A stretch of 64,000 nt of DNA from Isurus oxyrinchus (lineage: Eukaryota): contig JANJGN010000301.1 of the NCBI GenBank assembly GCA_026770705.1, forward strand, positions 496,001 to 560,000. The letters are read 5' to 3'. Each line of letters opens with the position of its first letter. Position 1 is the first letter of the stretch. Below, one piece after another: positions 23,761 to 59,525 of this stretch. A program made the position numbers and the translations under genes. Below the pieces are notes generated by a model that saw nothing but the letters and a program-made list of their open reading frames with translations, did not search any database and was not told the DNA's origin.

Positions 23761-24095
23761 ACAAAAACAAAAATATCTGGAAAAACTCAGCAGGTCTGGC
23801 AGCATCTGTGGAGAGGAACACAGTTAATGTTTCAAGTCTGCATGACTCTTCAACAGAACAAAGGAAAAATAGAAAATGGGTGAAATATAAACTGATTTAA
23901 GGGGGTATGGTGGGATATAAGCTAATAAGATATATTTCACCCCTTTTCTATTTTTGCTTAGTTCTGTTGAAGCGTCATGCGGACTTGAAACGTTAACTGT
24001 GCTCCTATCCCCAGATGCTGCCTGTTCTGCTGAGTTTTTCCAGGTATTTTTGTTTTTGTTTTGGATTTCCAGCATCCACAGTTTTTTGCTTTTAT
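23761..24095. mobile_element. Inverted pair of Penelope terminal repeats with 14-bp TSD
   Basis: 23761-23890 is the inverted copy of 23932-24060; TATAGTGCT(A/G)CGAT at 23746 and 24096. Confidence 0.8.
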
Positions 24096-27000
24096 TATAG
24101 TGCTGCGATTACTGATATAGACTCTGGCTTGATATCAACTGAGACAGGGCATTGTGCAGTGATCATTGATACAGGGTCTAGATAAATATAAACTGGGACA
24201 GGGGCTAGTGCAATGATCACTGTTACAGTGTCTGGACTAAAATAAACTGAGGCATTCCCTAGTTCTGTCAATACTGATACAGGTTCTGGACTAATATAAA
24301 CTGAGTTAAGGTATAGTGCAGTGATTACTGATACAGGATAGGGATTGATATAAATGGAGTCCTGGCATAGTACAGTGATTACTGATACAGGGCCTCGATT
24401 AATATAAAATGCGACAGTGTCCATTGCACTGATTATGATGCATGGCCTAGATCAATATAAACTGAGATAGGGTCGAGTGCAGTGATTACTGATACAGGGT
24501 CTAAATTAATAGAACTTGAGACAGGCCAAGTGCAGTGATTACTGCTAGAGGGTTTAGATTGATATAAACTGATGCTGGGTCTAGTGCAGTGATTACTGAC
24601 ACAGGGTCTAGATCAATATAAACAGAAACAGGGGCTAGCGCAGTGATTACTGATCCAGGGTCTATATAAAAATATACTGGGATGGGGGCCAGTGCAGTGA
24701 TTACTGATACAGGGTCTGGACTCATAAACTGAGGCATTTTCTAGCTCTGTCATTATTGATACAGGTTGTAGACTAATATAAATTGAGACAGGGTCGAGCG
24801 AAGCGTTAACTTATACAGAATCTGGATTGATATAAGCTGAGGCAGGCCATAGTGCAATGATTACTGATACAGTGTCTGAATCAATATAAACTGAGACAGA
24901 GCCTAGTGCAATGATGACTGATACAGGGTCCAGATGATAAAGAGTGAGGCAGGGCATTGTGCAGAGATTACTGATACAGGGTCTAGATTAATATAAACTG
25001 AGACAGAGCCTAGTGCAGTGATTACTGATACAGGGTCTAGATTAATATAAACTGAGACAGAGCCTAGTGCAATGATGACTGATACAGGGTCCAGATGATA
25101 AAGACTGAGGCAGGGCATTGTGCAGAGATTACTGAAACAGGGACAAGGTGAATATAAAGCAGGAGAGAGGCTAGTGCAGTGATTAATGATACAGGATCAG
25201 GGTCAGTATAAACTGAGGCAGTGCCCATTGCAGTGATTACTGATACATGGCCTAAATTAATATGAACTGAGGCAGGGCCTAATGCAATGATTACTGATTT
25301 AGGGACCAGATTAATATGAAGTGAGGCAGGCCATAGTGCAGTGATTACTGATTCAGGGTCTAGATCAATATAAACTGAGACAGGGATTAGTGCAGTGATT
25401 ACTAATAGAGGGTCTAGGTTGATATAAAGTGAGGTAGGGCCTAGTGCAGTGATTACTGACACAGGGAGGAGAGCAATATAAACTAGGTCAGGGGATAGTA
25501 CTGTGATTAATGATAGAGGATGAGGATCAATATAAACTGAGACAGTGTCCATTGAAGTGATTATGGTTACAGGGTGTACATCAGTATAAACTGAGATAAG
25601 GTCCAGTGCAGTGATTAATGATGCAGGGTCTGGATTAATATAACATGAGGCAGTGTCTAGTGCAGTGATTACTGATCCAAGGTCTTGATAAATATAAAAC
25701 TAAGATCATGTCTAGTGCAGTGATTACTCATACAAGGTCTAGATTAATATGAACTGAAGCACAGCCTAGTGCAGCGATTACTGACTTAGGGACTAGATTG
25801 ATATAAACTAAGAAAGGGCATATTAAATTGATTACTGATGCAGGGTCCAGGTTAATAGAAACTGAGAGAGGGAAAAGTGCAGTGGTTATAGATTCAGGGT
25901 GCAGATTATTATAACCAGAACAGGGACGAGTGCAGTGATTACTGAAACAGGGCCTTGATTAATATAAACTGAATCAGGCTCTTGTACAGTAATCACTGAT
26001 ACACGGTCTGAACTAACATAACCTGAGACAATGCCTGGTGCACTGTTCACTGACACAGGGTCCAGATAAATATAACAGGGACAGGGGCTCGGGCAGTGAT
26101 TACCGCTGCAAGGGCTAAATTAATATAAACTTTGATAGGGCCTAGTGCAGTGATTATTGACACAGGGTCTAGACTGATTTTAAAAAACTGAGGCAAGGCA
26201 TAGTGCAGTGATTGCTGATACAAGGTACAGATTAATATAAACTGAGACAGGGCCTAGATAAATATAAGCCAGGACAAGGGCTAGTGCAGTGATAATGATA
26301 CAGGATCATGATCAATATAAACTGAGACAGTGTCCTTTGCAGTGATTACTGATACAAGATCTAGATCAATATCAATGGAGAAAGGGCCTAGTGCAGTGAT
26401 TACGGATAAAGGGTCTTGATTGATATAAACTGAGGCAGGGCATTGTGTAGTGATGACAAATGCAGGCTCTATGTTAATATAAAATGTGACAGGGTCTCAT
26501 GCAGTGATTACTGACACAGGGTCTATTTGATATAAACTGAGGGAGGGCATATTGCAGTGATAGCCTAGAGCAATATATATGGAGACAGTGTTCATTGCAG
26601 TGATTGCTGATGCAGGGTCTTGATTAGTGAAAACTGAGACACTGCAAAGTGCAGTGATTACAGACAAAGAGTCAAGGCTGATATAAACTGAGGTAGACCA
26701 TAGTCAGTGATTACTGATACTGGGTCCAGATAAATATAAACTGAGACAGGCTCGAGTGCAGAAAGAACTGATGCAAAATCTAGATCAATAGAAACTGATG
26801 CAGGGTCTAATGCATTGATGATCGACACAGGGTGTAGATTAATATAACCTGAGGCCAGGCCTAGTGCAATGATTACAGATGCAGGGTCGAGAATGATAAA
26901 AACTGAGGCAGGGCATAGTGCAGGGATTACTGATACAGGGTCGAGATTAATCTAAATTGAGACATGGTCTGGTGCAGTGCTTACCGATACAGAATCAGGA

Positions 27001-28974
27001 TCAATATAAACTGAGACAGGGCCCAGTGCAGTGATTACTGACACATGGTATCAATCAATATTAACTCAGACAATGTCCAGTGCAGTGATTACTGACACAG
27101 AGCCTAGATTAATATAAACTGAGGCAATGTCTAGTGCAGTGATTACTGATAGTGTCCAGATCAATATAAACTGAGATAGGTCCAAGTGCCACGATTATTG
27201 ATACAGGGCCTGGATTAATATAAACTGAGACAGGGCCTAGTGCAGTCATTACTGATACATGAACTAAATTAATATAAACTGAGACGGGCTCTAGTCCAGT
27301 GTTTACTGATACAGGGTCTCAATCAATATAAACTCAGACAATGCCGAGTGCACTGATTACTGATACAGGATCTAGATTTATAAAAACTGAGGCATGTTCT
27401 AGTGCAGTGATTACAGATGCAGAATCTATCTTAATACAAACTGAGACAGGTTCTTGTGCAGTAATTATTGATTCAGAGTCTCAATCAATATGAACTCAGA
27501 CAACGTCCAAAGCAGTGATTACTGATACAGGGCCGAGATAAATATAACTTGAGGCAGGGCCTACTGCAGTGATTACTGATACAGGGTCTAGGTTAACAGA
27601 AACTGAGAGAGGGCCAAGTGCAGTGATTATAGAGTCAGGGTGCAGATTATAATAACCAGAACAGGGTCGAGTGCAGTGATTACTGATACAGGGTCTTGAT
27701 TAATATAAACTGAGACAGGCTCTTGTGCAGTAATTACTGATCCATGGTCTGAACTAACATAACCTGAGACAGGGCCTGGTGCAGTGTTCATTGATACAGG
27801 GCCTAGATAAATATAACTGGCGCAGGGACTCGGGCAGTGATTACTGATACAGGGTCTAGGTTAATATAGATATTGAGATGGGGCCTAGTGCAGTGATAAC
27901 TGAAACAGGGTCTAGATTCATAAAAAAAGCTGAGGCAGGGCATGGTGCAGGGATTACTGATACCGGGCCGAGATTAATATAAACACAGAGAGGCTCAGGT
28001 GCAGTGATTGCTGATATAGGGTCCAAATTGATATAAAATGACACAGGATCTAGTGCAGTGATTACTGATACAGGGCCTAGATTGATATAAACTGAGACAA
28101 GGCCGAGGGCCATGATTTGTGTTACAAGGTTGGATGCATATAAAATGGAACAGGGTCAAGTGCAGTGATTACTGATACAGGGTCCGGATTAATTGAACCT
28201 GAGAAACAGCCCAGTGCAGTGCTTTTAGGTTCAGGGTGCAAATTATTATTGCTAGAACAGGGTTGAATGCAGTGATTACTGAATCAGGGTCTTGATTAAT
28301 ATAAACTGAGACAGGCTCTTGTGCAGTGATTACTGATACAGGGTCTGAACCAACATAAAGTGTGAAGTATTCATTGATGCAGGGCCTAGATAAATATAAC
28401 TGGTACAGGAGCTCTTGCAGCGATTACTGCTGCAGGGACTAAATTACTATAAACTGAGACTGGATCTAGTGCAGTGATTACTGATAGAAGGACTGGGCTA
28501 ATGTAAAGTGAGACAGAGTCTAGTGCAGAGATAACAGATGTGGGACCAAGATCCATATGAACTGAGACAGGGTCGAGATCAATATCAACTGAGACAGTTT
28601 TTACTGCAGTGAATACTGATACAGGGTCTTGATTAATAAACACTGAGACAGGGCCTAGTGCAGCGATTAATGTTATAGGGGCTAGATTAATATCGACTGA
28701 GAGAACCTCAAGAACAGAGATTACAGATACAGGGTCTAGATTAATATAATCTGAGACAGGTCTAGTGTAGAGATGACTGATACATGGCCTAGCTCAATAT
28801 AAATTGAGGCAGTATCCAGAGCAGTAATTACTGACACGGGGTCTTGATTAATATAAATTGCGGAGGGCACAGTGCAGTGATTCCTGATGCAGGCTCTAAA
28901 TTAATGTAAACTGTGCAAGGCCTAGTATGGTGATTACTGATACAGGGTCTAGATTGATAAAAACTGAGACAGGG

Positions 28975-29130
28975 CAGAATATAATTCAAAAATTGGCTTT
29001 CTTGTAGGAGACAGAGGATGATGACAGAAGGATGCTTTAGTTACTGGAAGCCAGTGTCCAGTGGCGTAGCACAGGGATCTGTGCTGGGTCCCCTATTATT
29101 TGTCATTTATATAAACGACATAGATGGCTA
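28975..29130 (+). mobile_element. CR1 fragment, duplicate of the 5' end of the 33765 CR1
   Basis: Same CCAGTGTCCAGTGG..CACAGGGATCTGTGCTGGGTCCCC segment and same satellite junction. Confidence 0.85.
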
Positions 29131-32100
29131 GATTAATAGAAACTGAGACAGGTTCTAGTGCAGTGTTTACTGATACATGGTCCTGATCAATATAAACTCA
29201 GACAATGTCCAGTGCAGTCATTACTAATACAAGGTCTAGATCAATAGAATCTGAGACAGGGTCCAGTTCAATGAAAACTAAAGTAAGGTCAAGATTAATA
29301 TAAACTCAGACAATGTCCAGTGCAGTGATGGCTGATACAGGGTCTGGATCAATATAAACTGAAACAGTGTCCAGTGCAGTGATTACCGAAACAGGGTCTA
29401 AATTAATATAAACTGAGACAGAGCCTAGTGTGATGATTACTAATATAGGGTCTAGACGATAAAAACAGAGGAAGGGCATAGTGCAGTGATTACTGATACA
29501 GGCTCTAGATTAATGTAAACTGAGACAGAGCCTAGTGCAGTGATTACTGATACAGGGCCGAGGTAAATATAATGCAGGACAGAGGCTAGTGCATTGATTA
29601 ATGATACTGGATCAGGGTCAATATAAACTGAGACAGTGTCCATTGAAGTAATTACTGATACATTGCCTAAATTAATATGAACTGAGGCAGGCCATATTGC
29701 AGTAATTACTGAACAAGGCTCTAGGGCTAATATAAACTGAGACAGGGCCTAGTGCAGTGATTACTGATACATGGTCTAGATCAATATAAACTGAGGCAGT
29801 GTCCAGTAGAGTGATTACTGATACAGGGTCTTGATTAATATAAACTGAGATGGGGTCTAGTGCAGTGATTCCTGATACAGGCTGTAGCTTGACAGAAGCT
29901 GACACTGGGCATTGTGCAGTGATTACTGATCCATGGTCTGGATAACTATAAACTGGGACAGGGGCTACTGCAGTGATTACTGTTACAGTGTCTGGACTAA
30001 AATAAGTGGAAGCATTCTCTAGATCTGTTATTACTGATACAGTTTCTGGACTTATTTAAACTGAGATAAGGTCTAGTGCAGTGATTACTGATACAGGATA
30101 TGGATTGATATAAACTGATGCTGGATCCAGTGCAGTGATTACTGGCACAGCGTCCAGATCAATATAAACAGAGATAGGGACTAGTGCAGTAATTACTGAT
30201 ACACGGTTGACATAAATATAAACTGGGATAGGGGCCAGTGCAGTGATTACTGGTATAGGGTCTGGACTCATGTAAATGGAGACAGGGTCCAGCAAAGTTA
30301 TTACTGATACAGGATCTGGATTGATATAAACTAAGGCAGGCCATAGTGCAGTGACTAGTGTCGCAGGGCCAAGATAAATAAAATCGAGGACAGCGGCTAG
30401 TGCAGTGATTACTGATACGGGGTCTAGAACAATATAAAGTGAGGGTGGTCATTGCACTGATTATTATGCAGAGTTTGATTTATTTAAGATGAGACAGGCC
30501 CTAATGCCAGGATTACTGATACAGGGTCTGGATCAATATAAACTGAAACAGTGTCCAGTGCAGTCATTATTGATACAGGCTCTGGATGATAAAAACTGAA
30601 GCAGGGCATAGTGCAGTGATTACTGGTACAGGGTCGAGGTAAATATAAACTAGGACAGAGGCTAGTGCATTGATTAATGATACAGGATCAATATCAATAT
30701 AAACTGAGACAGCGTCCATTGCACTGATTACTGATGCATGGCTTAAATTAATATGAACTGAGTCAGGGCCTAGTGCAGCGATTACTGATTTAGGGTCTAG
30801 ATTAATATGAACTGAGGCAGGCCATATTTCAGTGATTACTAACACAGGGACTAGATTAACATAAACTAGGACAGGGGATAGTGCAGTGATTAATGATACA
30901 GGATCAGGGTCAATATAAACTGAGACAGTGTCCATTGAAGTGATTACAGTTACAGGGTGTACATCAGTATAAAATGAGACAGTGCCTAGGGCAGTGATTA
31001 CTGATCTTAGGTCTTGATAAAAATAAAACTAAGATAGTGATTAGTGCAGTGATTACTGATACATGGTCTTGATTAATATGAACTGAGGCATGGCCTAGTG
31101 CAGTGATGACTGATTTAGGGTCTAGATTGATATCAACTAAAATAGGGAAAATTGCAGTAATTGCTGATACAGGGTTGAGATTGACATAAATTGAGGCAGG
31201 GCATATTGCAGTGATTACTGATAGAGGGTATAGGTTAATAGAAACTGAGAGAGGGCCAAGTGCAGTGATTATAGATTCAGGGTGCAGATTATTATAACCA
31301 GAACAGGGACAAGTGCAGTGATTACTGAAACAGGGCCTTGATTAATATAAACTGAGACAGGCTCTTGTACAGTAATTACTGATACACAATCTGAACTAAC
31401 ATAACCTGAGACAGGGTCTGGTGCAGTGTTCACTGACATAGGGCCCAGATAAATATAACTGGGACAGGGGCTGAGGCAGTGATTACTACTGCAGGGACTA
31501 AATTAATGTAAACTGAGATAGGCCTAGTGCAGTGATTACTGATACAGGGCCTAGATTGATAAACAAAATGACACCTGGCATATTGCACAGCATCTAGCTT
31601 AATATAAACTTCGGCAGAACCGAGTGCAGTAATTACTGACACATGATCTCAATCAATATGAACTTAGACAATGTCCAGTGCAGCGATTACTGATGCAGAG
31701 CTAGATTAATATAAGCTGAGGCAGGGCCTCATGCAGTGATAATTGATACAGGGTCTAGATTAATAGAAACAGAGAGAGGGCCAAGTGCACTGAATACTGA
31801 TAGAGGGTCTAAATTGATATAAACTGAGGTAGGCCACATTGCTGTAATTACTGATACAGTGTCCCGATCAATATAAACTGAGATAGGTCCAAGTGCAGTG
31901 ATTACCGATACAGGGTCTGGATTAATATAAAGTGAGACAGGGCCTTGTGCAGTCATTACTGATACAAGATCTAGATTAATATAACCTGAGACGGGGCTTA
32001 TTGCAATTATTACTGATAGATGGTCTGGACTAATTTAAACTGAGGCAGGCCAAAGTGCAGTGATGACTGATACAGGATCTAGATTAATATAAACTGAGAC

Positions 32101-33764
32101 AGGGTCTAGCACAGTGTTTATTAATACAGTGTCTCAATCAGCATAACTCAGACAATGTTGAGGGCAGTGATTACTGATACAGGATCCAGATTAATGTAAA
32201 CTGAGGCATGCTCTAGTGTACTGATTACAGGCACAGGATCTAGCTTAATATAAACTGAGACAGGTTCTTGTGCAGTAATTACTGATACAGGGTCTCAATC
32301 AATATAAACTCAGACAATGTCCAGTGCAGTGATTACTGATACAGGGCCAAGATAAATATGAACTGAGGCAGGGCCTACTGCAGTGATTACTGATACCGGG
32401 CCAAGATAAATATGAACTGAGGCAGGGCCTACTGCAGTGATTACTGATACAGGGTCTCGGTTAATAGAAACTGAGAGAGGGCCAAGTGCAGTGATTATAG
32501 ATTCAGTGTGCAGTTTATTATAACCAGAACAGGGACGAGTGCAGTGATTACTGAAAAAGGGGCTTGATTAATATAAACTGAGACAGACTCTTGTACAGTA
32601 ATTACTGATACAAGGTCTGGACTAACATAAACTGAGAAAGGGCCTGGTGAAGTGTTAATTGATACAGGGCCTAGATAAGTATAACTGAGATGAGGCAGTG
32701 ATAACTGATACAGGGTCTAGATTGCTAAAAAAAAACCTGAGGCAGGACATAGTGCAGGGATTACTGATAACGGGCTGACATTAATATAAACTCAGAGAGG
32801 TTCAAGTGCAGTGATTACTGGTATAAGGTCCAAATTGATATAAAATGACTTGCGTCTCGTGTAGTGATTACTGGTATAGGGTCTGGATTGATATAAACTG
32901 AGACAAGGCCTGGTGCCGTGATTTGTGTTGCAGGGTTGGATGCATATAAAATGGGACAGGGCCTAGTGCAGTGATTACAGGCACAGGTTTTAGATTAATA
33001 TAAACTGAGAAACAGTGCAGTGCAGTGCTTTTAGGTTTAGGGTGCAAATTATTAATACCAGAACAGGGTCGAGTGCAATGTTTACTGCAACTGGTTCTTG
33101 GTTAATATAAACTGAGACAGGCTCTTGTGCAGTAATTACTGATGCAGGGTCTGAACCAACATAAACTGAGACAGGGCCTGGTGAAATGTTCACTGGTACA
33201 GGGCCTAGATAAATAAAACTGAGACAGGAACTCTTGCAGTGATGACTGCTGCAGGGACTAAATTAATATAAACTGAGGCTGGATCTATTGCAATGATTAC
33301 TGATAAAGGGACTGGGCTAATATAAAGTGAGACAGAGTTTAGTGCAGATATAACTGATGTGGGGTCAGGATCAATATAAACTGAGACAGGGTCTGTTGCA
33401 ATGATTACTGATACAGGGTCTAGATCAAAGTCAACTGAGACAATGTCAATTGCAGTGATTTCTGATCCAGGGTCTTGATTGATAAAAACTGAGACAGGGC
33501 CTAGTGCAGTAAGTAATGTTAAGGGTCTAGATTAATATAAACTGAGAGAGCCTCAAGTACAGAGATTACAGATACAGGATCTAGATTATTATATGCTGAG
33601 ACAGATCTAGTGCAGAGTTTACTGATACATGGTCTAGCTCAATATAAACTGTGGCAGGGCATAGTGCAGTGATTACTGATGCTCTAAAGTAACGTAAGGA
33701 AGACAAGGTCTAGTACGGTGATTACAGATACAGGGTCTAGATTGATAAAAACTGAGGCAGGGAA

Positions 33765-34850
33765 GAATATAATTCTAAAATTGGATTAGTTGTAGGAGAC
33801 AGAGGGTGATGACAGAAAGACGCTTTAGTTACTGGGAGCCAGTGTCCAGTGGTGTACCACAGGGATCTGTGCTGGGTCCCCGATTATTTGTTATTTATAT
33901 AAACAAAAGTGGATGCCTACATGTGGGGTAGGATTAGTAAGTTTACGGAGGATACAGAGATTGGCCGGTTGGTTAACAGTGATGTTGAGTGTTTTGGGCT
34001 ACAGGAAGATATAGATGGAATGGTCAAATGGGCAGATAAGTGGCAGATGGAATTTAGCACTGAAAAGTGCGAGGTGATACACCTTGGAAGGAGTAATTTG
34101 ACTATGAATGGGATGACACTAGGAAGTTCTGAGGAACAAAGGGACCTTGGCATGTGTGTCCATAGGTCTCTGAAGGCAGAGGGGCATCTTAGTGGGGTGG
34201 TGAAAAAGGCATATGGGTCACTTGCCTTTATCAATTGAGGCATAGATTACAAAAGTAGGAAGGCCATGTTAGACTTGTATAGAACCTTGGTGAGGTCACA
34301 GCTTGAGTACCATATGCAGTTCTGGTCGCCACATTATAGGAAGGATGTGATGCACTGAAGAGGGTGCAGAGGAGATTCACCAGGATGTTGCCCGGTATGA
34401 AACATTTAAGTTATGAAGTGAGGTTGGATAGACTTGGGTTGTTTTCATTGGAGCAGAGAAGACTGAGGGGAGACCTGATTGAAGCGTACAAGATTCTGAG
34501 GTGTGTGGACAGGGTGAATAGGGAGCAGCTGTTGCCCTTAGTTGAAGGGTCAGTCACAAGGAGACATAAGTTCAAGGTGAGGGGCAGGAGGTTTAGGATG
34601 CTTTTGAGGAAAAACGTTTTTACCCAGAGGGTGGTGATGGTCTGGAATGCGCTGCCTGGGATGGTGGTGGAGGTGGGTTGCTTTACATCCTTTAAAAAGT
34701 ACTTGGTTGAGCACTTGGCACGTCATAACATTCAAGGCTATGGGCCAAGTGCTGGTAAATGGGATTAGGCAGGTAGGTCAGGTGCTTTTCACGTGTCGGT
34801 GCAGACTCGATGGGCCAAAGGGCCTCTTCTGCACTGTGTGATTCTGTGAT
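33765..34850 (+). mobile_element. CR1 LINE 3' portion
   Basis: GVPQGSVLGP; ORFs 33909-34238 and 34364-34768 are CR1 RT C-terminus. Confidence 0.93.
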
Positions 34851-36414
34851 AATATAAACTGATTACTGATACAGGTCTAGATCAATATCAAGGGAGACAG
34901 CGTCTCGTGCAGTGATTACTGGCAGAATCTAGATTAATACAAACTGTGACAGGGCCGAGTGCTGTGATTACTGACACAGGGACGAGATTATTATAAACTA
35001 GGACAGGGGCTAGTGCAGGAATTAATGATACAGGATCAGGATCAATATAAACTGAGGCAGTGTCCTTTCCAATGATTACTGTTAGAGGGTCTGGACTAAT
35101 ATAAACTGAATCAGGGCCTAGAGCAGTCATTACTAATACAGGGTCAAGATTAATAGAAACTGAGACAGAGCCTAGTGCAGTGGTTACTGATGCAGGGTGT
35201 AGATTAATATAAACTCAATGTCCAGTGCAGAGATGACTGACAGAGGGTCTAGATTAATGTAAACTGAGACAGGGTCCACTGCAGCGATTAATGATACAGG
35301 GTCTAAATTAATATAAACTGAGACAGTGTCTAGTGCAGTGATTCCTGATATATGGTCTGGACTAGAATAAACTGAGACAGGGCCAAGTGCAAGAATTACT
35401 TCATCATTGACGCCCATATCCCAAGAATGAATTAAAACACTGCAAAATACTGCATGTTTGGGAAATCTAAGGCAGAGCAAAAAATAACCACTCAGCAGGT
35501 CAGTGGGCATCAACAGAGAGAGAAACAGGTCAAACGTTCAGGCCGATGACAGGTGCAAAATCTCCCTTAGTACAAATCTATAGAGCAGGACTGTTCTCCC
35601 CACTATCCTAGTCCAGTATTCATTCTTCAACTAAAATCACATATTATCTTATCATTTTTTGCAGCTCTATTCGTGGGAGCTTGCTGTGCACAAATCACCG
35701 GATGGATTTCCAATATTACAGCAGTGACTAAACTTCAACAAATGTACATCAACGAATTTCAAGGGCTTTAGGACGTCCTGGGGTCACAAGCTGCGTTCTA
35801 TAAATGTAAATTCTTCCTAAATGTTAACATTTTAAAATGCTAGTTGTGATATGTTGAAAACTCTAAGATTAATATGATTATAGGTCGCTCCTGTGGCTGC
35901 TGTTTTAAATTATCCATTTTTAATCAGTTAAATCTTCCAACAAATTGACATTGAGTGTAATCCCAGCCTGTTCAAATATTCATCATTGATTGTGACAGTA
36001 GCACTTTCAGAATTGAATTATTAATTTAAATGTATTTTTAATTATTTGAAATAAATAACATCTGTTCTAATGGATGTTGAAAATGTTTCTAGTAATTTTG
36101 TACCAACTGTCAATATTCTTAAAATAAACCCTTGTTTTGAGTTGAAACCAATCAATAAGTGTCTGTGTTTATCTGGTTTTGCTGCCATGAACACTTCATT
36201 GAAACCAATGAGGCGTTTATGTAAATAAACACAGAAATAGAAGTCCCAGATTAGATTCTGGATACACAAAAGCACAGCAAATATTTCCCCATCAATAGAG
36301 CACAGAAATAGAGTCAAACATGCAAATACATCAACAGATTTCAGTAACAACTTTTTTTGGGCATTTTTAAAATCAGTTATATGAGAATTATGTCACGACG
36401 ATATCTATTTTCAG

Positions 36415-37640: not shown

Positions 37641-39005
37641 AGACCCTGTCTTGATATTGCGTTCGACCGTGACCCTGTCTCTGTTTATATTACAGTTGAC
37701 CCTGCCTCTGTTTGTATTGCACTAGGCCCTGTCCCTGTTTATATTGCATCTGACATGTATCTGTTTATATTGCACTAGATGGTGTCTCTGTTTACATTGC
37801 ACTTGGCCCTGCCCGTGTTTATATGACACTCAACATGTCTCCTTATATTCGACATGCCTCTGTTTATATTGCACTAGGCCCTGCCCTGGTTTATATTACA
37901 CTAGACCCTGTTTCTGTTTATGTTGCACTGATCCCTATTTTGGTTTACATTACATTAGACCGTGTCTCTGTTTATATTATACTAGGCTCTGCCCCTGTTT
38001 GTATTACACTTGATATGTCAGTGTTTATATTACACTCGGCATGTCTCTGTTAATATTATACTCGACATGCCTTTGTTTATTTTGCACTAGACGCTGTATC
38101 TGTTTATATTACATTAGATCCGGTCTCTGTTTATATTGCACTAGGTCATGCCACTGTTTATATTAAACTGGGCCCTGTATGTTTATAATACACTAGACTC
38201 TGTCTCTATTTATATTACACTGGACCCCGTTTCTGTTTATATTACTCTAGATCCTGTCTTTGCTTATATTAAACAAGGCCTTGTCTCTGTTTATATTATG
38301 ATTGACCTGTCTCTGTATATATTCATCTAGAACTGTCTCTGTATTTCAGTAGCCACTGTCTCAGTTCTGTGCTAGATCATATCTGTATTTAAATTACATT
38401 AGACCCTGCCTCTGTTATTACTGCACTACACATGTGCCATAATGTGGAAATTGGCTGGGGTGGAAATAGTGAAGATAAGGCAGCAAGATGGTGGGAACAA
38501 TTAACATGGGGGCCTGTTTAGATGTTATGACTTGTCCTCCCTGCATCCCAGATTTGTGTTCATGATCCACAGACCTCTCTTATATTGCAGCTGTTTAAAT
38601 TAAACCATTTAACTCCTATTTTCAGGCTCTAGTGCAATAAAGTAAGGGAATATACTAATGTAATATAAACAGAGGACAATTACATAAATATCTAAGACAG
38701 GACCTAATGTTACAGAAACAGAAACATGGACTAGAACAGTAACAAAGAGACAGGCCCAGTAAAATACTACCAGAGACATGGTAGAGAGCAGCAATAACTG
38801 AGACAGAGTCCAGTGTTACAGAAACAGAAACATGAACTAGAGCAGTAACAATGAGACAGGCCCAGTGTAGTATCAACAGAGGCTTGGTGGAGAGCTGCAA
38901 TACTTAGACAGGATCTAGTATTACAGAAACAGAATCACGGACTAGAGCAGTAACAATGAGACAGGCTGAGTGTAATATTAACAGAGACACGGTGGAGTTC
39001 AGCAA
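37640..39005. repeat. 27-bp satellite, - orientation (37640-38430) then + orientation (38625-39005)
   Basis: Direct inspection. Confidence 0.8.
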
Positions 39006-45134: not shown

Positions 45135-45345
45135 CAAATAATTATAAACACCAACCTTTATCAATTCCCAAAGGTGAATAATTATATTCAAGAATTATCA
45201 TCAATTCGCAAAGATAAATAAGTATATTCACCAATTAGCATCAATTCACAACGATAAATAATTATATTCACCAATTACCATCAATTCACAAGACAAATAA
45301 TTAAGTTCAGAAATTATCATCCATTCACAAAGATTAATAATTGCA
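45135..45345. repeat. ~39-bp AT-rich minisatellite, about 5 copies
   Basis: AATAATTATATTCACCAATTA.CATCAATTCACAA units. Confidence 0.85.
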
Positions 45346-45529
45346 TGAACCAATCATTTTCAGCATTTTATTCCATTCAAATGTAATTGCGATTCATTTA
45401 ATATCATTAACATTGATTGAGATCGCATTGACCATTCTGTCAGCAATGAATTACATCTGTCCCAGAATTCAGTGGGAAATGGAATTAAATCAGACCGAGG
45501 TTAATGAGCAGCTACCCAGCAGCCTCTGC

Positions 45530-45910: not shown

Positions 45911-47337
45911 GAGACACTGAAGGTATTAGACTCATAGAAATAAAATACTGAACCTGCTTCAAGATATTAAGTAGTCATGCACCAAGATGGGAAGGTAGAA
46001 GAGCATTTTTCAGGCGCGCCGATCCATACATCGGTCAACCCATTCATTGATTCCTTAATCAAAATATTCAGGCATCCAACTACCATTCATCCCTCCATTC
46101 TTTGGCAGATGGTTGTGTTGTATTAATGTCACTGGATAAGCAACAAAGACACGAATACAAATCCCACCATAGCAGCTGGTGGAATTTAAATTCAATAATA
46201 AATCTGGGATTGAAAGCTGGTCCAGTGAAGGAAACCGTGAAACCACCATCGATTGTGGAAAAAAACTCATCTGATTCACTAATGTCCTTCAGGAAAGGAA
46301 ATCTGCCACTGTACCTAGTCTGGCCTACATGTGACTCCAGATCCGCAGCAACATGATGGACTCTAACTGCCCTCTGAAATGGCCGAGCAAGGCATTCAGT
46401 TCAAAGGCAGTTAGAGACAGGCAACAAATGCTGGCCTTGCCAATGACTCCCACATCCCGTGAAAGAGTAAAGGGGCAAAAAAATCACACAAATGTATATG
46501 TTTGACTGTTAAAAACATGTGTCCTCTCTCTGAGTCCTCTCTAATAGTCTGTCTGTAATTCTTTCCATCCATCCATCAGACTTTTATGATGTGTTGGAGA
46601 GATCCTCCAATGAGCTATTGTTGCTAACAGGATGTCAGAGAAGCTGGATAACTTTTCTTCCCTGAGAGATGGAAACAGTTCACATAGGTTCACAACTTAA
46701 AAAATAAAACTGACTCCAGTGTTGTTGCTGGGTAGATTTGTTTATAAATAGGCCTTGTTGACAATGCTAAGGGTTTGAAGTTGGCTTGCAGCCAAGCGGC
46801 CACTTCTGAGGAAACAGATCTTTGATTAACTGCACAAACCCCCCAGATGCTTCCTGTAAACAACATCGGACATTCGAGCCTCCCTGACTGCAGCTGGCTG
46901 GCTTGCTTCCAAATACTGTGTGGGTTGGATTAGCCGGGATATGATTGAACAAAATGGTTTTAGCCATTCAAACAATAAATATTTCTGTGGCACACGAAAG
47001 GCACATTTTAAATGGTACTTCATTAAAGGAAATATTTGAATGAATGCCGTGTTCACTGTGAAATTAAACTCGATCAGAAAATATTAAATTCACCACATAT
47101 TACTTAATTTATATTATTTCTAAGTAAAGGGCATTCCAGTTATTAAAGCCGGTTTATTAAGAACTTCATGGAGTGCGAGAGAGCGATGTTGATGGTCTCA
47201 ATCCCCCAGTCTAATGAGCTAAGTAGAATGGAAAAAAATTAAAATAAATTAAATTAAAAGAACATCATAGAATTGTATTGAACCTGCAGGAATTCCTTGA
47301 ATATTCCTCCAGTTGTGCACCTCATTTAGCCTGTGGT

Positions 47338-47640
47338 GTCCCTTAAACCTCATTAGTACCGTGAACTGTACAGTTTACTTTGTGATGATTGCGATTATTT
47401 AACAGTCCCTCTCATAGCTGCCAATGAGTGGAGAAATGATAAGTTCGTGACCAGCTTCAGTGGAAGATAAAACATTTATTCTTGTGATATTGTGTAATAT
47501 GCCGCAAAGTCCTGATATCCTGTGTTCCCAATACCAGTGAATGGTAGACAGCGGGAGGCCAATAAAATTAGCTGCAATGATTTGGATGCTGAAGGATAAC
47601 TTTTCTGATCTCCGTGTCTGTTCTGATTCATTAACTTCTT
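47338..47640 (-). pseudogene. TCR-like V relic head-to-head with the IgM VH
   Basis: SIQI/CS...LSTIHWYWEHRISGLCGIL (47528-47542 = IHWYW); TAC AGT TCA CGG TAC TAA TGA GGT TTA AGG GAC resembles DSARYYCALRD. Confidence 0.55.
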
Positions 47641-47899
47641 TGTCAAAAGTTGATGTAAATTTTACGTTTCTCTGTAAACTTACTGTTGACTTATCAGGCA
47701 GGCGGGCTTCTTTTATCGCTAATTTTCACAGGACTGTCTTTGGAACTGGGCAGATCGAGAAATGCAAGGAGAGGCATTGTATAATGTGAGGAGATTCTTC
47801 TTATCTTCGGATCCAAATTGAACAGCGATAGCCACCTTGGCTGTAAATAGAATCACTTTGTTCATCCCCCGCATTTAGTTACAAAAATCAATAATAATT

Positions 47900-48300
47900 C
47901 CTATGACTGATGACGCTTAATTATTGTAGTGAGATATAGACCCGGGGTTGCTGCAAAACAGACTGACCTTTATTCCCTGATAATGTAATTTTTTTAGGCT
48001 CAACCCCGGGGGCAGTAGTGTAGAAATAAATGGACTTAATTTAGAATGGAATTAGATTTTTATTAATAGACGCTCAAATGCAATTTCGCCATTAGAACCA
48101 ATGGAGACATTACAATGAATCCATTCAGCCAAATATCCCGATACAGATAAAATTTCCACTTTTCACAATAACTTATTGTAAATATCGAGTCCATTCTGTT
48201 GGGGATTTGGAAGGTGGGGCATGGATCCAGTCGCCGCCTCCACCAGGGAATCAATAGGCGGCGCCTGGAAACCCGCCCCTTTCTGCCGGGTATTTAAATG
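47900..48300 (+). promoter_or_regulatory. IgM VH promoter region
   Basis: TATTTAAA 48291-48298, GC box CCCGCCCC 48272-48279, CRE half-site TGACG 47911-47915, imperfect octamer ATGCAATT 48078-48085. Confidence 0.6.
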
Positions 48301-48389
48301 CCACTCACTGGGGCCGGAATCCAACAGTCCGGGAGCTGGTTTGTTCACTGAGTTCTGGACAGAACCATTTTCCCCAAATGACCAAAACG

Positions 48390-48435
48390 ATGAGGTCGGC
48401 GATTTCTCTCAGTTTGTTGCTGACTTTCTTATCCC
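48390..48435 (+). CDS. IGHV: IgM VH leader exon (MRSAISLSLLLTFLS; in-frame upstream ATG at 48378)
   Basis: Hydrophobic leader, GTGAGT donor at 48436, phase 1. Confidence 0.93.
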
Positions 48436-48564
48436 GTGAGTAGTTTTTTATTGTCCAAGTCTCTCACTGTTACTGTCTCAGTGTTAGTCTCTCTCTGGAA
48501 TGTTACAGAGTCAGAAATCATTTCACCAGGATTAATCCTCGGGGTTTTTGATTTATTTTTACAG

Positions 48565-48869
48565 GTGTTCAGTCGGAGGTTGTGTTGACTCAGCCAGAGG
48601 CAGAGACCGGGCGTCCCGGAGGCTCCCTGAGACTGACCTGTAAAACCAGCGGCTTCAATCTTGGCAGCTACGGCATGTGTTGGGTCCGACAGGTTCCCGG
48701 ACAGGGGCTGGAGTGGCTGCTTTGGTACTATAGTTCATCCAGCAACAACTATGCCCCAGCAATTAAGAATCGATTCACTGCGTCCAAAGACACTTCAAGG
48801 AACATCTTCTCCTTGGACATGACGAGCCTGAAGAGTGAAGACACCGCCATCTATTACTGTACAAGAGAC
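48565..48869 (+). CDS. IGHV: Germline IgM VH exon
   Basis: TTTACAG acceptor; (R)[25 protein letters not shown]...[12 protein letters not shown]...[11 protein letters not shown], open frame. Confidence 0.98.
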
Positions 48870-48908
48870 CACAGCGAGAGGAACCAGGGCTGGACCCGAA
48901 CAAGAACA
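48870..48908 (+). other. VH 23-RSS
   Basis: CACAGCG - 23 bp - ACAAGAACA. Confidence 0.95.
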
Positions 48909-49278
48909 GATCGAGAGAAACTCAACAACTGCCATCGTAACCTGACGGTCAGTACTTGTTTTAAATGTAATATTAACTGTAATGATCAGAACCCGACAAC
49001 TAGTCGCTTCTGACCAAAGTAAAGCAGCAAATTTAACTATAAAACCTAACAAACCAATTGATATAATGGGCTGAGCTTTTGGCTGTGCTTACATTTACTG
49101 TTAATAGTTTCCACAATTACAGACATAGATATAATGTTCATTTGAATATGTCTGATACTTGGACGGGATCACTATTCATTGAGTTTTGTAAATTGCTGCA
49201 TAAATACTAAACTAGATCAGAAGTAAACGTCTATTTGAAGTAAATATTGCGAGGCAGCACTGAACAGAGAGTGGGTGC

Positions 49279-49358
49279 AGTTTTTGTGCGGGTGTATTTC
49301 ACTGTGATACTACAGGGGGTCACAGTGCTGTGCACAGCGACATCCTCTTACAAAAACT
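49279..49358 (+). other. D1 segment (coding 49307-49320) with 5' 12-RSS and 3' 22-RSS
   Basis: AGTTTTTGT-12-CACTGTG ATACTACAGGGGGT CACAGTG-22-ACAAAAACT. Confidence 0.95.
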
Positions 49359-49663
49359 TCAGAAGGAGTTTGTTCAAATTGGTGATCACTATCACAACAG
49401 GAAAAGTCAAAGAAAATGGGAGCTAAATAAAATAATGGGTATAAGTAATATTGGTTTGCAAAAATATATAAAAGTATTCCGCTTTGTGTTTACGGACACG
49501 CTAAATCTTCACAGAGGCTTTTAAAGACCTCCAGTCACATTTAAAATATAATGACCAGCACAGGCTGAAATACCTCACTGATTCACACTTAGGTGAGTCG
49601 GAATCAGGTTTTTGAGAGCGCAGTGAAATTAAATCTCTGTATTTACAGTTAACAGTCTGCCGC

Positions 49664-49732
49664 AGTATTTGACATGGTGTCTCTCACTGTGATATGCTGG
49701 ATGGCACAGCAGTTACTGTCAATACAAAAACC
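49664..49732 (+). other. D2 segment (coding 49692-49704) with 12/12 RSS
   Basis: AGTATTTGA-12-CACTGTG ATATGCTGGATGG CACAGCA-12-ACAAAAACC. Confidence 0.93.
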
Positions 49733-50061
49733 CCTCAGCACTCATTGAGTCTGCCTGGGTCAGTGCTCGCTTTTACAATCCTGCTATATTTACAATGAAG
49801 TATTATTTTTGTCCAGCACTGCCCAAAAAACCTGGTTTAAGATGGAAAAGCTGTGATAATTATCCATTCATCAATTGGTGAATTCAATAACATGTTCATG
49901 TGTTATTCTGTGAATTATAAAACTCGAGGATCATTGATGAGTAGCTACAGATATCTACAAACGCAAATATAATTTCGCGAAGATTCATCGTGACCTCCCT
50001 TTGCCTCTGACTTAGGAATATTTAAAATAATGGTGGATTTCTGTCTTTTTGGTGCAGGCAC

Positions 50062-50148
50062 AGTTATTGTATGGCACAGCCCAGGGAATGTAACACTGTG
50101 ACGGGATGGACTACTGGGGACAAGGGACCATGGTGACGGTGACTGCAG
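50062..50148 (+). CDS. IGHJ: JH segment (coding 50101-50148) with 23-RSS
   Basis: AGTTATTGT-23-CACTGTG; GMDYWGQGTMVTVTA; GTAAG donor. Confidence 0.97.
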
Positions 50149-53100
50149 GTAAGAACCACACATTTATTTAGTAACTGTTTTATTTGAGTGTTTGTTTTTT
50201 TTTGTCTATTTTAATAATTCATTCAGCCAACGAAACCTGGGTTTGATGGATTCTGTATGCAGAATTTTTACAATGTTTCATGTGATTCTGCTGAAATTGA
50301 GTTATGTAATTCCGCTGTGTCTTGATAAAAAATGTTGCTGAGGGATTGAGACCCTGGTTGTTGTGATTTGGTATTTATCTGCTGAGGATACTGTGTGGCC
50401 GGGCTTCTTGAAACATCTAACGTTTGTAAAAACAGTTCGACGTTTCTGCAATGTTTAATCTCGGTGACATCTAATGGCTGCGGGTTTTACCATCTGTTGC
50501 ACAAGGGTTTAAACAAGTTTGAAATCAAACCCAATGTTAACAAAATATGCTTAAGTTTCAATATTAATTTATTGAACATGTTCCGCCTACTCACAATGCT
50601 GTTGACATTATTCCATATTTCTGTTTAGTTTAATTATTCATTCATTTGGTGACGAGCGGTAGTCTGGATTCGATATTGAGATTTTCTTGCAATATTACAT
50701 TGGATTCTGTTGGAAGTGTTTGTAGAATTGAGCTGCTTCTCCATGAAACGGGTTTCAGCCCCTCAGTGATGTGATTTGGTGTTTTTCTGCTGAGGAGATT
50801 GTGTGTCTGGGTGACTTTGAACAAGTAGAATTTATGAAACGGTTTGGCGGTTCTGCATTGTTTCTGCTTTGTTTAAACTCGGTGATATTGAGCGGTTACA
50901 CGTTTTGCGATTGAATCGAAGCAGCCTCCGCGTTCGTATCTGCTTGAAGCGCGATTGTAGGCAGAAAACAGACAGGTTTCAGAAATGGGAAAAAAGCTCT
51001 TAAAGATGTGTTAGAACATGTTGTCTTTATTTTAAGTGATAATTGCAGATTAAACTAAACCATGGATTATGGCGCTCATTCAGAATATAATTCGTTACTG
51101 CAATCAGAAACTATATAATTACCACATTTTCAAGTTGTAGAGTAAAACTAATACAATTCAAACAATTATAATGTGGTAATATTTCTCTATATTAACTGAA
51201 CAGCTTTCATATTAACATAATTGATCATTAATCGGCCTTTCATAATTTTGTTGGGCACTGCGCACAATTAACATGCTCGGGAAAGTTTTTAGGCTGGAAA
51301 CATTTTGTGATTTATTAATGAAACAATTTCAATAAGAATATACTGATTCTACAAATTTGGTCAATTTCACATGGGATTTTGAATTATTTGTTATATCGCT
51401 GATAACGGTTGCATTGACTTAAAGAGGAGTTTGACATTTCAGTTTGGCAATGTGTCTATCCGGTTGTTACGTTCTTTCTGTGCAGCTGTAACCATATTAT
51501 TCCTTCAATGTCATTGGGATTTGGATAGCGAGACAATTGTCACTAATCTAATCTTAAACAGTTTTCTGGGGTTGGTGGGGGTGAGGGGTGGAATTCGCTG
51601 GCAGTAAATGAATTGTTCTTACGTTTTTTTGAACTGTAGGAAGGTGCAGATTGCATATGAATAGAGATTGACAAGGAAAGGCTTGAAATTAGAACAAATT
51701 AATTTAATTGCAAACATTAATGTTAGTTTTGATTTTAATAACAACATCCTGTCTATCAGAGCTGTACTGTGCACAGGTTAGGATTATAGGAGAAGAACAG
51801 ATTATATCTGAGATTCATGCTTAATTCTTATTAAATATTAAATTGAAGAACAAAATCTCGATTCAATTTGCTGATTATATTTCAGTGTCACAGATGATAT
51901 GAATGAACTGTTCTCATCAAGTTTTATATTGATCAGTTTGGATCTTCTTTCAATGAACAAAAATGTAACAATTAAAGAATAGGGATTTTTATCAAGGAAA
52001 CATTTTATTGATAATAAGTAACTGCCAGGAACATTTTCTTACATATAGTTTGGAGTTAAGAAAAGTTTCCTTTAGCAAACAGATGATATTACAGCTCATC
52101 GACACTTAATGCGATGTGAACCCGGCCAGATTTGAAAGTATTTCCAATATTCCACTGATAAATTCACCCTGTGAATTACTCGATGAGAATAGATGGAATT
52201 TATGATTTCTCAATGCGTTCGGAAACACGCATAGCTTGCAATATTGTTGGTTAAATCAGAGCAGTAGAAGTAGAAGCAAAATCGTATATCGTGCTTAGAT
52301 TTAAGTAAAATTGATACACTTGCCTGAATGTTACCATCTAGCAATTTGCAGTTTATTGTTTAACATTGTTTCAGTGTCAGGTTGATTTAAATAAACCCCA
52401 ATTATTTCACTAAGTACCAGGGAGAAACAAATTTTCAATTTTTGAAAACCATTTTTAATATTATAGAGTAGAAATCAGCTGACAAGAAAATGAGTCGGCA
52501 ATAACAAGATCATTAGCTTACAATATAATATTAGTGATAATTAATTCAACATAAATGTGCTCCAACAACTAAATAGTATAATGGTCATTATAATGAATGC
52601 AAAATCTCAATGGAGAGAATTTTTAATTGAATCCGAAATTAATTTAGAAAAGAATACTTTTCTTACTCAGCTGTGCTCAGATCGGTAAGGAATTCCGCCT
52701 TGATGTTTTTATTGGTTCTATTCATACCTAAAATCAAATCAAATCAGCGGGTAATCGGTTTTCAATATGAATGTTTCCTGATTTGTTTAATTCTTACCCT
52801 GTCATTGAGTCTCTGTTATGGACACCAAATTATCTTGAACCTGTAATTTTTGCTGTGCTCATTTTCAGGGTAACTTAAATCCTATATTATTTGGAGATTC
52901 GAGACAGATCAGAGAGAATTAGATGGACTTAAAAGGGAAGTTTGAAATGAAAATCAGATTAATTTCAAAGAAGTTATAGAATAATTGTAGTAAATTGACC
53001 GTTGATCAATTAGAATCAAACAGCTTGAGTGAAATGGACAGATTGAACAGATCTCTCTGCTGGGAACTCGCTTGTTGCACCATTTGTGTCTGTTCTGTTT

Positions 53101-56217: not shown

Positions 56218-56403
56218 AAGCTGATCAATCTGGAGAATTGGGACAGGATCGATGGAAATGAAGAGGAGGAGGTGGAAGTGGTGGAGCTGAATGGAGGAGC
56301 CCCCAGCTCGGCTGTGGACAACAGGCAACGGAAAACTGAGCCGGAGCAGAAAATCATCTGGAGAAACATCACCTTGATGAGCCTACAGCACCTGGGCACC
56401 CTC
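56218..56403 (+). pseudogene. SCD: Stearoyl-CoA desaturase N-terminal fragment
   Basis: QKIIWRNITLMSLQHLGTL matches the conserved SCD motif VWRNIILMSLLHLGAL; no ATG in frame; homology ends abruptly. Confidence 0.75.
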
Positions 56404-57405
56404 ACTACCCACAATCACTCACCCTCACTCACCCTCACTCACTCACCCTCACTACCCACAATCACTCACCCTCACTCAATCTCACTCACTCACTCACCCT
56501 CACTCCCTCACACTCACTCCCTCACCATCATTTCTTCACCCTCACTCACTGGCCCTCACTCACTGGCCCTCAGCCACCCTCGCTCACCCACCATCACTCA
56601 CTCAGCCTCACTCCCTCACCCTCACTCCCTCGCCCTTACTCACTTGCACTCTCTTGCTCACCCACCCTCACTCACCCACCCTCACTCACCCACCCTCACT
56701 CACCCACCCTCACACACCCACCCTCACTCACTCACCCTCACTCACTCACCCTCACTCAGGCACCCTCAGTTATCCACCCTCACCCACCTTCACACACCTT
56801 CCTTGACTCACCATCAATTACTCACTCACCTTCACTCACTCACCCCTCACTCACACCCCTCACTCTCTCACCCATCACTCTCTCATCCATCACTCACGCA
56901 CCCTCACCATCCTCACTCACCCTCACTCAACCTCACTCCTCACTACCACTCACTCACTCTTACTCACCCTCACTCACCCTTACCCACCCAGCCGCATCCA
57001 CCCTCACTCACCCACCCTCACTCACCCTCACACACTCACCCCCACCACACCCTCATTCACTCACCCTCATTCACTCACCATCAATTACTCACCCTCACTC
57101 ACACACCCTCAGTCACCCTGACCCACCCAGCCTCATTCACACTCATCCACCCACCCTGATATACCCAGTCACCATCACTCACATATGCACCCTCACATAC
57201 CCACCAACCCTCAATCACCCACTCATCTACCCTCATTCAAACACCTGCCCTCACTCACTCATATCATTCTCACTCACCCACAATTAGACACCCACCCACG
57301 CTCACTCACTACCCACCCTCATTCACTCCTTCAATCACCCACGCACCCTCACGCACTCAGCCACCCACCCTCACTCTGTCAATTATGCACACGCTCACTC
57401 ACTCG
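56395..57405. repeat. C-rich (CACTCACCCT)n repeat
   Basis: Direct inspection. Confidence 0.92.
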
Positions 57406-57587
57406 ATCACTTTTCCTAAATCAGTGTGTGGGAGGGCGGGAACTGCGGGGAAGAGAGACTTAGAAGCGAGGCCTGAGGCCTCACAGTGTCAGAAGGTGGA
57501 GCATGGCCGAAGGGAGCGATTAGCATCAGTGGAAAGATCAGAGAGCCAGGCGAAAGCGCAGGGACCCTTAGAGTAAGTGCAGTTGGC

Positions 57588-59525
57588 TGGGGGAAAGGGC
57601 AAAGAGGCGTGGGAGATAGGGCATAGAGGGTGCAGCACGGCAGAGAGGAGGGGGAGGGGGAGGACATGGCAGAGAAGCCTGGTAGGAAGGGCAGAGAGCT
57701 GGGGAAAGGTCAGTGAGAAGTGGAGTAAGGGGCAGAGAGGCGTGTTGGGGAAAGGGCAGAGAGGGGAGGGGGAAAGGGCAGAGAGGTGGGGGGAGAAAGG
57801 GCAGGGAGTTGGGAGGGGGAAAGGCAATGAGGCGGGAAAGGGCAGAGAGTCGATGGGAAGGGCAGAGAGCCGGGGGAAAGATTGTATAGCCAGTGGAAAA
57901 GGTCAGAAAGAGGAGCAAAAGCATAGAGAGCCATGGAGTAGGTGCAGAGAACTGGGGGAGAAAGGGCAGAGAGGTGGGAGGGGGAAAGGGCAGAGAGGTA
58001 GGGGGGGGGGAGGGCAGAGAGGCGGGGGATGGGCAGAGGGGGGAGGGCAGAGAGGTGGGGGTAGGAGGGCAGAGGGGGAAAGGCTAGAGAGGCAGACAGG
58101 GAAAGGGCAGAGCGGCGGGAGGAGGAAGGGGCAGGGAGGTGGGAAGGGGAAAGGCAGAGAGGTGATGGGAAGGGCAGATAGCTGGGGGAAAGATCATAAA
58201 GCCAGTGGGAAAGGTCAGAGAGCAGAGCAAAAGCACAGGGAGCCGTGGAGTATGTGCAGAGAACTGGGGGAGAAAGGGCAGAGAGGCGGGAGAGGGAAAG
58301 GGCAGAGAGGCGGGAGGGGGAAAGGGCAGAGAGACAGGAGGGGGAAAGGGCAGAGAGGCGGGAGGGGGAAGGGCAGAGAGGCGGGAGGGGGAAAGGGCAG
58401 AGAGGCGGGAGGGGGAAGAGCAGAGAGGCGGGAGGGAGAAGGGCAGAGAGGCGGGAGGGGAAGGGTAGGGAAGCGAGGAGTGGATAGTGCAGAGAGGCAG
58501 AGAGGGAAAGGATAGAGAGTCAGGAGGGGTAAGGGCAGAGAGTCCGAAGGGGAAGGGCAGAGGGGCAGAGGTGGGAAGGGCAGAGATTTGGGAGGGGGAA
58601 AGGGCAGAGAGGTGGGAGGGGGAAAAGGCAGAGAGGCGGGAGGGGGAAAGGGAATGGAGGTAGAGGGGGGAAGGGCAGAGGGACAGAGAGGGAAAGGGCA
58701 GAGAGGCCAGAAGGGGAAAGGGAAGGGAGGTAGAGGGGGGAAGGGCAGAGAGGCAGGAGGGGGGAGGGCAGTGAGGCAGAGGAGGAAAGGGCAGGGGTGG
58801 AAAGGAGAGAGGCGGGTGGAAAGGGCAGAGAGACAGGGGAAGGGCAGAGAGACAGAGGTACGAAGGGCAGAGAGGCAGAGGTGCGAAGGGCAGAGAGGCA
58901 GAGAGGAAAGCGCAGGGAGCTAGAGGGGGAAGGGCAGGGAGGCAGAGGGGGAAAAGACAGGGAGGCGGGAGGGGGAAGGGCAGGGAGGCGGGAGGGGGAA
59001 GGGCAGGGAAACGGGAGGGGGAAGGGCAGGGAGCTGGTGGTGGAAAGGGCAGACAGGAGGGAGGGGGATAGGGCAGAGAGACGGAGGGGGAAAGGGCAGA
59101 GAGGCGGGAGGGCGAAGGGCAGAGAGGCGGGAGGGGGGAAGGCAGAGGGGCAGAAGGGGAAAGGGCAGGGGGAAGGGCAGAGAGGCAGTGGAGGACAGAG
59201 AGGCAGGAGGAGGAAGGACAGGGAGGCGGGGGTGGAAAGGGCAGAGAGGAGGGAGGGGGAAAGAGTAGAGAGGCGGGAGGGCGAAGGGCAGAGAGGCGGG
59301 AGGGGGGAAGGCAGAGGGGCAGAAGGGGAAAGGGCAGGGGGAAGGGCAGAGAGGCAGTGGAGGACAGAGAGGCAGGAGGAGGAAGGACAGGGAAGCGGGG
59401 GGGTGGAAAGGGCAGAGAGGCAAGGGGGAAAGGGCAAAGTGGCGGGGGGTGGCGGGGTGGGGGGGTGGAAAGGCAGAGAGGCCGGAGGGGAATGGGCAGA
59501 GAGGCCGGAGGGTGGGCGAAGGGCA
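57588..59525 (+). repeat. G/purine-rich tandem repeat (GGGCAGAGAGGCGGGAGGGGGAAA)n
   Basis: ~2 kb, T-poor top strand, internal block duplications (57840-57990 vs 58153-58290). Confidence 0.93.

Follow-up and report, generated by a model that had tools for sequence, protein, structure and literature searches.

VH promoters of the horn shark carry CRE-like, TCR-like elements. Shark IgH promoters that lack the octamer are described in PMC2435157, and Flajnik et al. (2025, PMC12227049) have already published V exons of TCR-alpha/delta type that stand between the IgH clusters of elasmobranchs. In the latter account, TCR-type V segments are interleaved with IgM miniclusters in an antigen receptor complex, an arrangement that is also observed in the genome of the shark Isurus oxyrinchus. 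Unlike those recognizable V exons, the V-like sequence considered here lies at the detection limit, stands 0.9 kb from a VH exon, is inverted and has been multiplied with the IgM unit. A sequence-only reading had taken it (47338-47640) for a TCR-like V relic head-to-head with the IgM promoter, and had proposed that part of this promoter may be derived from, or have been shared with, a TCR-type V. No earlier description of the relic, or of the upstream element at 46722-46980 discussed below, was found in the literature searched, in which shark immunogenetics is thinly covered. Our own reading, held with little more than even confidence, is that the sequence is a long-dead V segment, probably of TCR alpha/delta type, inverted to VH and copied with the IgM clusters as a probable passenger; it is probably not the source of the antibody gene's promoter signals.

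The window, i.e. the whole stretch of 64,000 nt analysed (GCA_026770705.1, contig JANJGN010000301.1, 496,001-560,000 of the forward strand; G000:C301:496001-560000), contains a shark IgM minicluster (Table 1), the C-mu exons of which start at about 62150. The leader-to-VH splice is seen in RNA-type contigs (contig start at 48330), and both the VH exon and the splice are real. TCR-type V genes, some intact and others broken, are packed densely together with NAR-TCR-type cassettes into the 100 kb preceding the window and on the matching chromosome, C26; these family labels are our assumption from their motifs, Pfam assigning V-set only. Directly 5' of the window (G000:C301:486001-496000, locus L195), the minus strand carries three V sequences: one of NAR-TCR type with an RSS, one of supporting type and a further one that is broken. 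Degenerate 27/54-base minisatellite arrays (21500-35400 and 37670-39000) occupy much of the interval that separates the IgM cluster from the TCR-type relics, and a 40-base repeat at 45160-45350 differs in copy number between clusters. In the JH-C-mu intron, positions 56400-59450 hold pyrimidine-rich and then purine-rich simple repeats with a strong strand skew, a pattern reminiscent of a putative switch-like sequence.

Table 1. Positions of the features discussed in the text, in coordinates of the window
Feature	Position	Strand	Evidence or remark
Decayed TCR-type V segment	2306-2578	-	RSS remnant; about 2490-2585 matches a dispersed repeat
Decayed TCR-type V segment	3621-3896	-	23-spacer RSS remnant; amplified region yields 22 distinct copies
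Upstream element common to both IgM families	46722-46980	+	ETS cores, E-box, forkhead-like motif; candidate enhancer
Likely decayed V-type exon	47347-47646	-	Single frame; broad V-profile alignment
Heptamer-like site	47357-47363	-	Two mismatches in window, one in ancestor; 173 bases after Trp codon
IHWYW motif	47528-47542	-	First Trp in conserved Trp column of V domains
First V cysteine column	47570-47572	-	Ala in window and paralogues, Cys in P0001
Leader-like hydrophobic peptide	47824-47874	-	ATG codons at 47874 and 47865; about 180 bases upstream of the relic
CRE half-site TGACG	47911-47915	+	16/51 copies, not in ancestor
Octamer-like ATGCAATT	48078-48085	+	7/51 copies, window's own clade
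Conserved core promoter of the window's IgM family	48170-48377	+	GC boxes and TATA-like box 48291-48299 (44/51 copies)
IgM leader exon	48378-48435	+	Sequence; splice joint 48435-48565 in RNA-type contigs
IgM VH exon	48565-48869	+	Pfam V-set, E 3.7e-17; 23-spacer RSS at 48870
D1, D2, JH and recombination signals	49278-50151 (ends approximate)	+	RSS scan

The window also holds two V segments whose decay is beyond doubt (3621-3896 and 2306-2578), which can be set beside the relic. They too have been duplicated as broken V frames within this amplified region, but their scores are 36 and 30 against -1 for the window copy of the relic. Both retain Tyr-Tyr/Phe-Cys and remnants of a 23-spacer RSS, at a distance of 44 kb from the VH. 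A consensus of the copies of 3621-3896 restored much of the V domain. From window copy to consensus, the score on our first profile rose from 21 to 47 for this segment and from 7 to 18 for 2306-2578, against a change from -14.6 to -13.0 for the claimed relic, which is much the faintest of the three. Pfam searches of the relic in six frames and of its paralogues returned only a colicin match (E 0.13-0.27), a blank that weighs little because Pfam is also blind to the two true decayed segments.

Profile comparisons were more informative for the minus strand. Against a broad V profile built from 65 V sequences, many of TCR-alpha/delta type, an ancestor inferred from 51 paralogous copies (which are non-independent, near-duplicates from unplaced contigs being included) aligns in one frame over 99 columns with one gap. 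It reaches z 6.7 (0/500 residue shuffles), or z 4.95 with IHWY fixed, and the window copy reaches z 4.6 (0/500 residue shuffles), or z 3.6 with IHWY fixed (1/500), all values being inflated by the trial of about 20 profiles with several gap settings and by the original choice of the site for its V-like look. On the same profile, eight of 1247 natural low-stop frames outscore the ancestor, all eight being real V-set exons. None of 1254 ordinary window frames attains the score of the window copy or the ancestor, the nearest lying more than 6 points below the window copy, and the best shuffle-based z among these frames is 3.8. Half-samples of the broad profile gave z 2.8-7.1 (n=14). A second profile, built independently, places the ancestor at the top of 2580 frames, ahead of two real C-mu exons; above the window copy it places two C-mu exons and a simple repeat. 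In frameshift-aware scoring under four gap settings the ancestor's score was reached by 0/214 tiles and 0/500 shuffles, and hhalign recovered the same register over 30-31 gapless columns (P 4e-4 to 5.5e-4, probability 30-34%). The V-likeness of this single frame is of moderate strength and, on these scores, appears statistically supported; we consider it reasonably probable that 47347-47646 is a real V-type exon relic.

The hallmarks of a V segment are preserved unevenly. The framework 2 Trp-Tyr is present at 47531-47536, in a word kept as an exact 15-mer in 36 of the 51 copies. Where the first cysteine is expected, 11-14 residues before this Trp, the window and its paralogues have Ala or Gly; Asp-x-Ala-x-Tyr-Tyr-Cys in frame with the Trp is likewise absent, with a stop at the Asp column and Val at the Cys column, and an out-of-frame Cys codon precedes the heptamer-like site. 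The distance from the Trp to that site falls within the 171-199 bases of real V genes in the locus (n=18). No 23-spacer nonamer was found after it, a 5/9 nonamer lying at 13 bases, and the relic has no proper phase-1 splice donor and a weak acceptor. Of 703 stop-free ATG 14-mers, one equals the score of the leader-like peptide against 35 real leaders. A single homologue, P0001 (ENA, 122 residues), was found in the protein collections searched; it represents the relic frame without stops and is 55% identical. It alone has Cys at the predicted first-cysteine column and, without an Asp, an in-frame Tyr-Cys-Ala two residues before the His (CAC) at the heptamer position, a Tyr-Cys-Ala/His pattern that occurs in 2.5% of shuffles with WY fixed. 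A metagenome scan for P0001 DNA gave no match, PDB sequence searches gave none for P0001 or A3, and the AlphaFold model of P0001, which has a pLDDT of 46 and matches no known fold at E 0.001, is uninformative.

It is nevertheless possible, though in our judgement unlikely, that there is no relic at all, and that a long open frame with an IHWY word in ordinary non-coding upstream DNA resembles a V domain by chance. The frame is open for 108 codons (47402-47725), with two stops near its 3' end, but equally open frames are common, being found in 24-68% of shuffles and in most real tiles. On the first, narrower profile, 55-75 of 504 tiles score as well as the relic site (top 11-15%) in frameshift-aware alignment, a combination that finds V genes decayed by 20% and is unreliable at decay of at least 30%. 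The low hhalign probability and the missing RSS nonamer and splice donor point the same way, as do the V-like motifs competing in incompatible frames. The gapless register matches only three of seven near-invariant V residues, with its signal in the N-terminal half, and the same bases in a second, incompatible frame yield other V-like motifs, including a framework-3-like motif, which indicates that such motifs arise easily. Searches with nhmmer and hmmsearch using own-genome V profiles found no match at the relic, the ESM Atlas search of its frame gave no usable match, and the weak PDB matches, VEGFR1 at E 0.59 and internalin at E 0.03, concern unrelated proteins and are read as noise. A V reading of the plus strand, suggested by an RFSG word, was rejected at z 1.6 at most. 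Chance resemblance is harder to reconcile with an ancestor that outscores both the window copy and the natural frames tested (except the eight V-set exons on the broad profile), with a leader-like peptide and a heptamer at fitting distances, and with a homologue, unseen in the sequence-only reading, that has cysteines at the predicted columns. The gain over the window copy on reconstructing a consensus across clusters, which that reading had offered as the test of its relic, does exist but is modest: it is matched by 2/600 random mutants on the broad profile and by 39/600 on the second, and amounts to only +1.6 on the first.

If a relic it is, its assignment to the TCR side is a relative matter. 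Type-specific profiles give z 3.5 for TCR-alpha/delta, 0.8 for IgH and 1.7 for IgL, so that the label 'TCR-like' stands as a preference, but no single family fits, and none was significant after the many trials. A TCR type is favoured only relatively, from the profile z values and the neighbourhood. Among the candidates set aside, the QFPTAR family reached a best z of only 2.7-3.1, and an intron match to the ADPVTQSP family (z 5 on two genes) was gone with the family profile (169/300 shuffles). NAR-TCR V segments resemble the relic in the leader peptide, and CGTCA stands 28-35 bases before the ATG in eight NAR-TCR-type rows, but their V protein profile does not fit the relic frame (z 0.25) and their DNA profile gives no match; IgNAR was likewise rejected.

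The relic recurs only with VH genes. A VH lies about 0.9 kb away in 30/30 first loci and 19/19 further loci, and on chromosome C26 the relic is found at 38 of the 39 VH places of the window's IgM family, all 38 copies being accompanied by a VH. About 4 kb of upstream DNA is co-duplicated with it at 80-89% identity, so that recurrence alone is uninformative about function. A dispersed repeat was rejected as an explanation: 68 of 69 matches fall on the IgH chromosome or related unplaced contigs, and the remaining one (E 1.3) has no DNA similarity. The relic, with the same variants, is also present in contigs from three runs, B, C and D, that bear the labels of other organisms.

The substitution pattern is neutral. 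Omega is 1.05 for the long frame (26 new stops) and 1.21 for 47338-47640 (17 new stops), values that do not indicate purifying selection in a test that is weak, the VH control giving 0.89 overall and 0.61 in framework 3. Indels occur within 47338-47640 in 20 of the 51 copies; a 118-base deletion affects the relic of two copies with an open VH, and an 89-base insertion is present in three copies. Divergence between copies amounts to 0.093 within the relic, to 0.117-0.128 in the flanking DNA and to 0.063 in the core promoter (0.115, 0.121-0.143 and 0.075, respectively, in a more divergent subset). To judge from these substitutions, the relic frame evolves neutrally and is not used as a coding frame. 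The idea that the long open frame is a live gene or a receptor-kinase retrocopy was discarded, the frame being neutral and its openness no rarer than chance, and one unstranded 248-base contig over 47454-47698 (depth 2.2, one run) is uninformative either way. Positions 47400-47499 show a divergence of 0.061 over all 51 copies, level with the core promoter, and of 0.093 in the divergent subset; the low value perhaps reflects conversion among close copies.

As regards the promoter, the spacing of about 0.65 kb between relic and TATA-like box given in the sequence-only reading is correct, with TATTTAAAT at 48291 lying 651 bases from 47640. The two motifs on which its proposal leaned are also present in the window, but the CRE half-site recurs in only 16/51 copies and is absent from the ancestor, and the one-mismatch octamer recurs in only 7/51, against 44/51 for the TATA-like box; a promoter derived from or shared with a TCR-type V finds no backing in motifs so poorly conserved. 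The best conserved windows (48170-48370) lie about 300 bases or more past the leader-like ATG of the relic. In contrast to the CRE-like element of shark promoters, no CRE is conserved in the window's family; what is conserved there is a TATA-like box with GC boxes and, farther upstream, the ETS/E-box element. Even among real TCR-type V promoters in the locus, few have a CRE-like word within 150 bases. No exact octamer occurs between 46900 and 48600, in keeping with the lack of the octamer in the shark IgH promoters described in PMC2435157.

A second large IgM family, located off the IgH/TCR chromosome (L215, L216 and L222-L226; contigs C38, C42, C49, C88, C20 and others), allows the upstream region to be compared. 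It has in common with the window the leader, VH, D-J spacers and one upstream element, and is about 50% identical in VH, 70% in C-mu2 and 91% in C-mu3, the last two values differing in a way that may reflect conversion between IgM families. Its upstream DNA holds no V-like frame (best -27 vs -5). The relic is thus not universal upstream of IgM VH genes, and IgM clusters exist without it. Nothing in the second family can be aligned to the segment 47045-48375 of the window, which includes the core promoter, and both flanks of this segment do align (E 2.4e-22 and 5.8e-37; V-D-J spacers 64-68%), which suggests replacement of the proximal 1.3 kb rather than slow drift.

The 260-base shared element itself aligns with E 2.4e-22 over 46721-47044. 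It lies 1.85 kb from the VH exon in the window and 2.1 kb in the second family, where 22 of 24 fetched copies have a VH at that distance. Its divergence of 0.073 equals that of the core promoter. TTCCTG is kept in 20/20 copies of the window's family and 24/24 of the second, CAG(A/G)TG in 20/20 and 23/24, and GGAAAC in 19/20 and 24/24; by their consensus sequences, we take these to be putative ETS and E-box sites. On the strength of this conservation, 46722-46980 is a better regulatory candidate than the relic region, and a candidate IgM enhancer.

The missing counterpart of 47045-48375 between aligning flanks would also fit a more far-reaching account, which we regard as improbable: an older promoter gave way to an inverted TCR V and some 0.7 kb of the DNA upstream of that V, and the VH genes are driven by TCR-derived sequence running backwards. 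A 25-base piece (48206-48230) matches NAR-TCR-type V upstream DNA close to the diagonal expected, and among leaders it is one of NAR-TCR type that the leader-like peptide resembles most, but the failure of the NAR-TCR DNA and protein profiles speaks against such an origin, and the consensus match is equalled by 60/300 shuffles. The poor conservation of the CRE half-site and octamer and the rarity of CRE-like words in real TCR-type V promoters also weigh against it, and it would take an outgroup to show which of the two IgM families has changed. That one IgM family gained its 1.3-kb proximal region in this way, by capture of an inverted TCR V wedged between an older enhancer-like element and the leader, leaving about 40 VH genes TCR-driven, seems to us quite unlikely. 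Were it true, exactly these VH genes could be active in T cells and open to IgH-to-TCR-delta trans-rearrangement.

An origin of the relic from a non-rearranging immunoglobulin-superfamily exon (an I-set or V-set receptor) is very improbable: although the long frame's only PDB match is VEGFR1, in a Gly-x-Pro-x-x-x-Ile-x-Trp register, and the V profile gives real C-mu exons almost the same score, the divergent copies and P0001 have Gly-His-Arg and not Gly-Leu-Pro, the z value is 0.1 on a profile made from three non-rearranging V-set exons, a search for a parent gene found none, and a rearranging V is what the heptamer-like site and the leader geometry fit.

If the sequence is, as we prefer, a long-dead V carried along with the IgM unit, an ancestral IgM cluster would have adjoined, or taken up, an inverted TCR-type V in a mixed IgH/TCR locus. 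By the time the clusters multiplied, this V would already have been without its cysteines, splice signals and RSS nonamer, and it would then have been amplified in its decayed state as their passenger. IgM transcription would rest on the GC-box/TATA-like core, and likely also on the older shared element, and not on the CRE half-site and imperfect octamer. A real relic would be a fossil marker of an IgM cluster and a TCR-type V standing within one kilobase of each other before the IgM family multiplied, would separate two IgM families with unrelated proximal promoters, and bears on the reasons for the use of shark VH in T-cell receptors. The more usable outcome is testable regulatory DNA, namely the core promoter and the 260-base shared element, in a setting where IgH promoters lack the octamer.

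Some VH-like sequences of the genome depart from these arrangements. At C26:24432881 (L129), a VH has promoter DNA only from the equivalent of 48278 on and no relic; it runs into JH-like sequence without D spacers, and is possibly a germline-joined or processed copy. At C242:584701 and C26:29933862 (L206 and L207), pairs of divergent VH-like segments, about 58% identical and 2.1 kb apart, stand without the IgM upstream region and are possibly TCR-associated VH-like segments.
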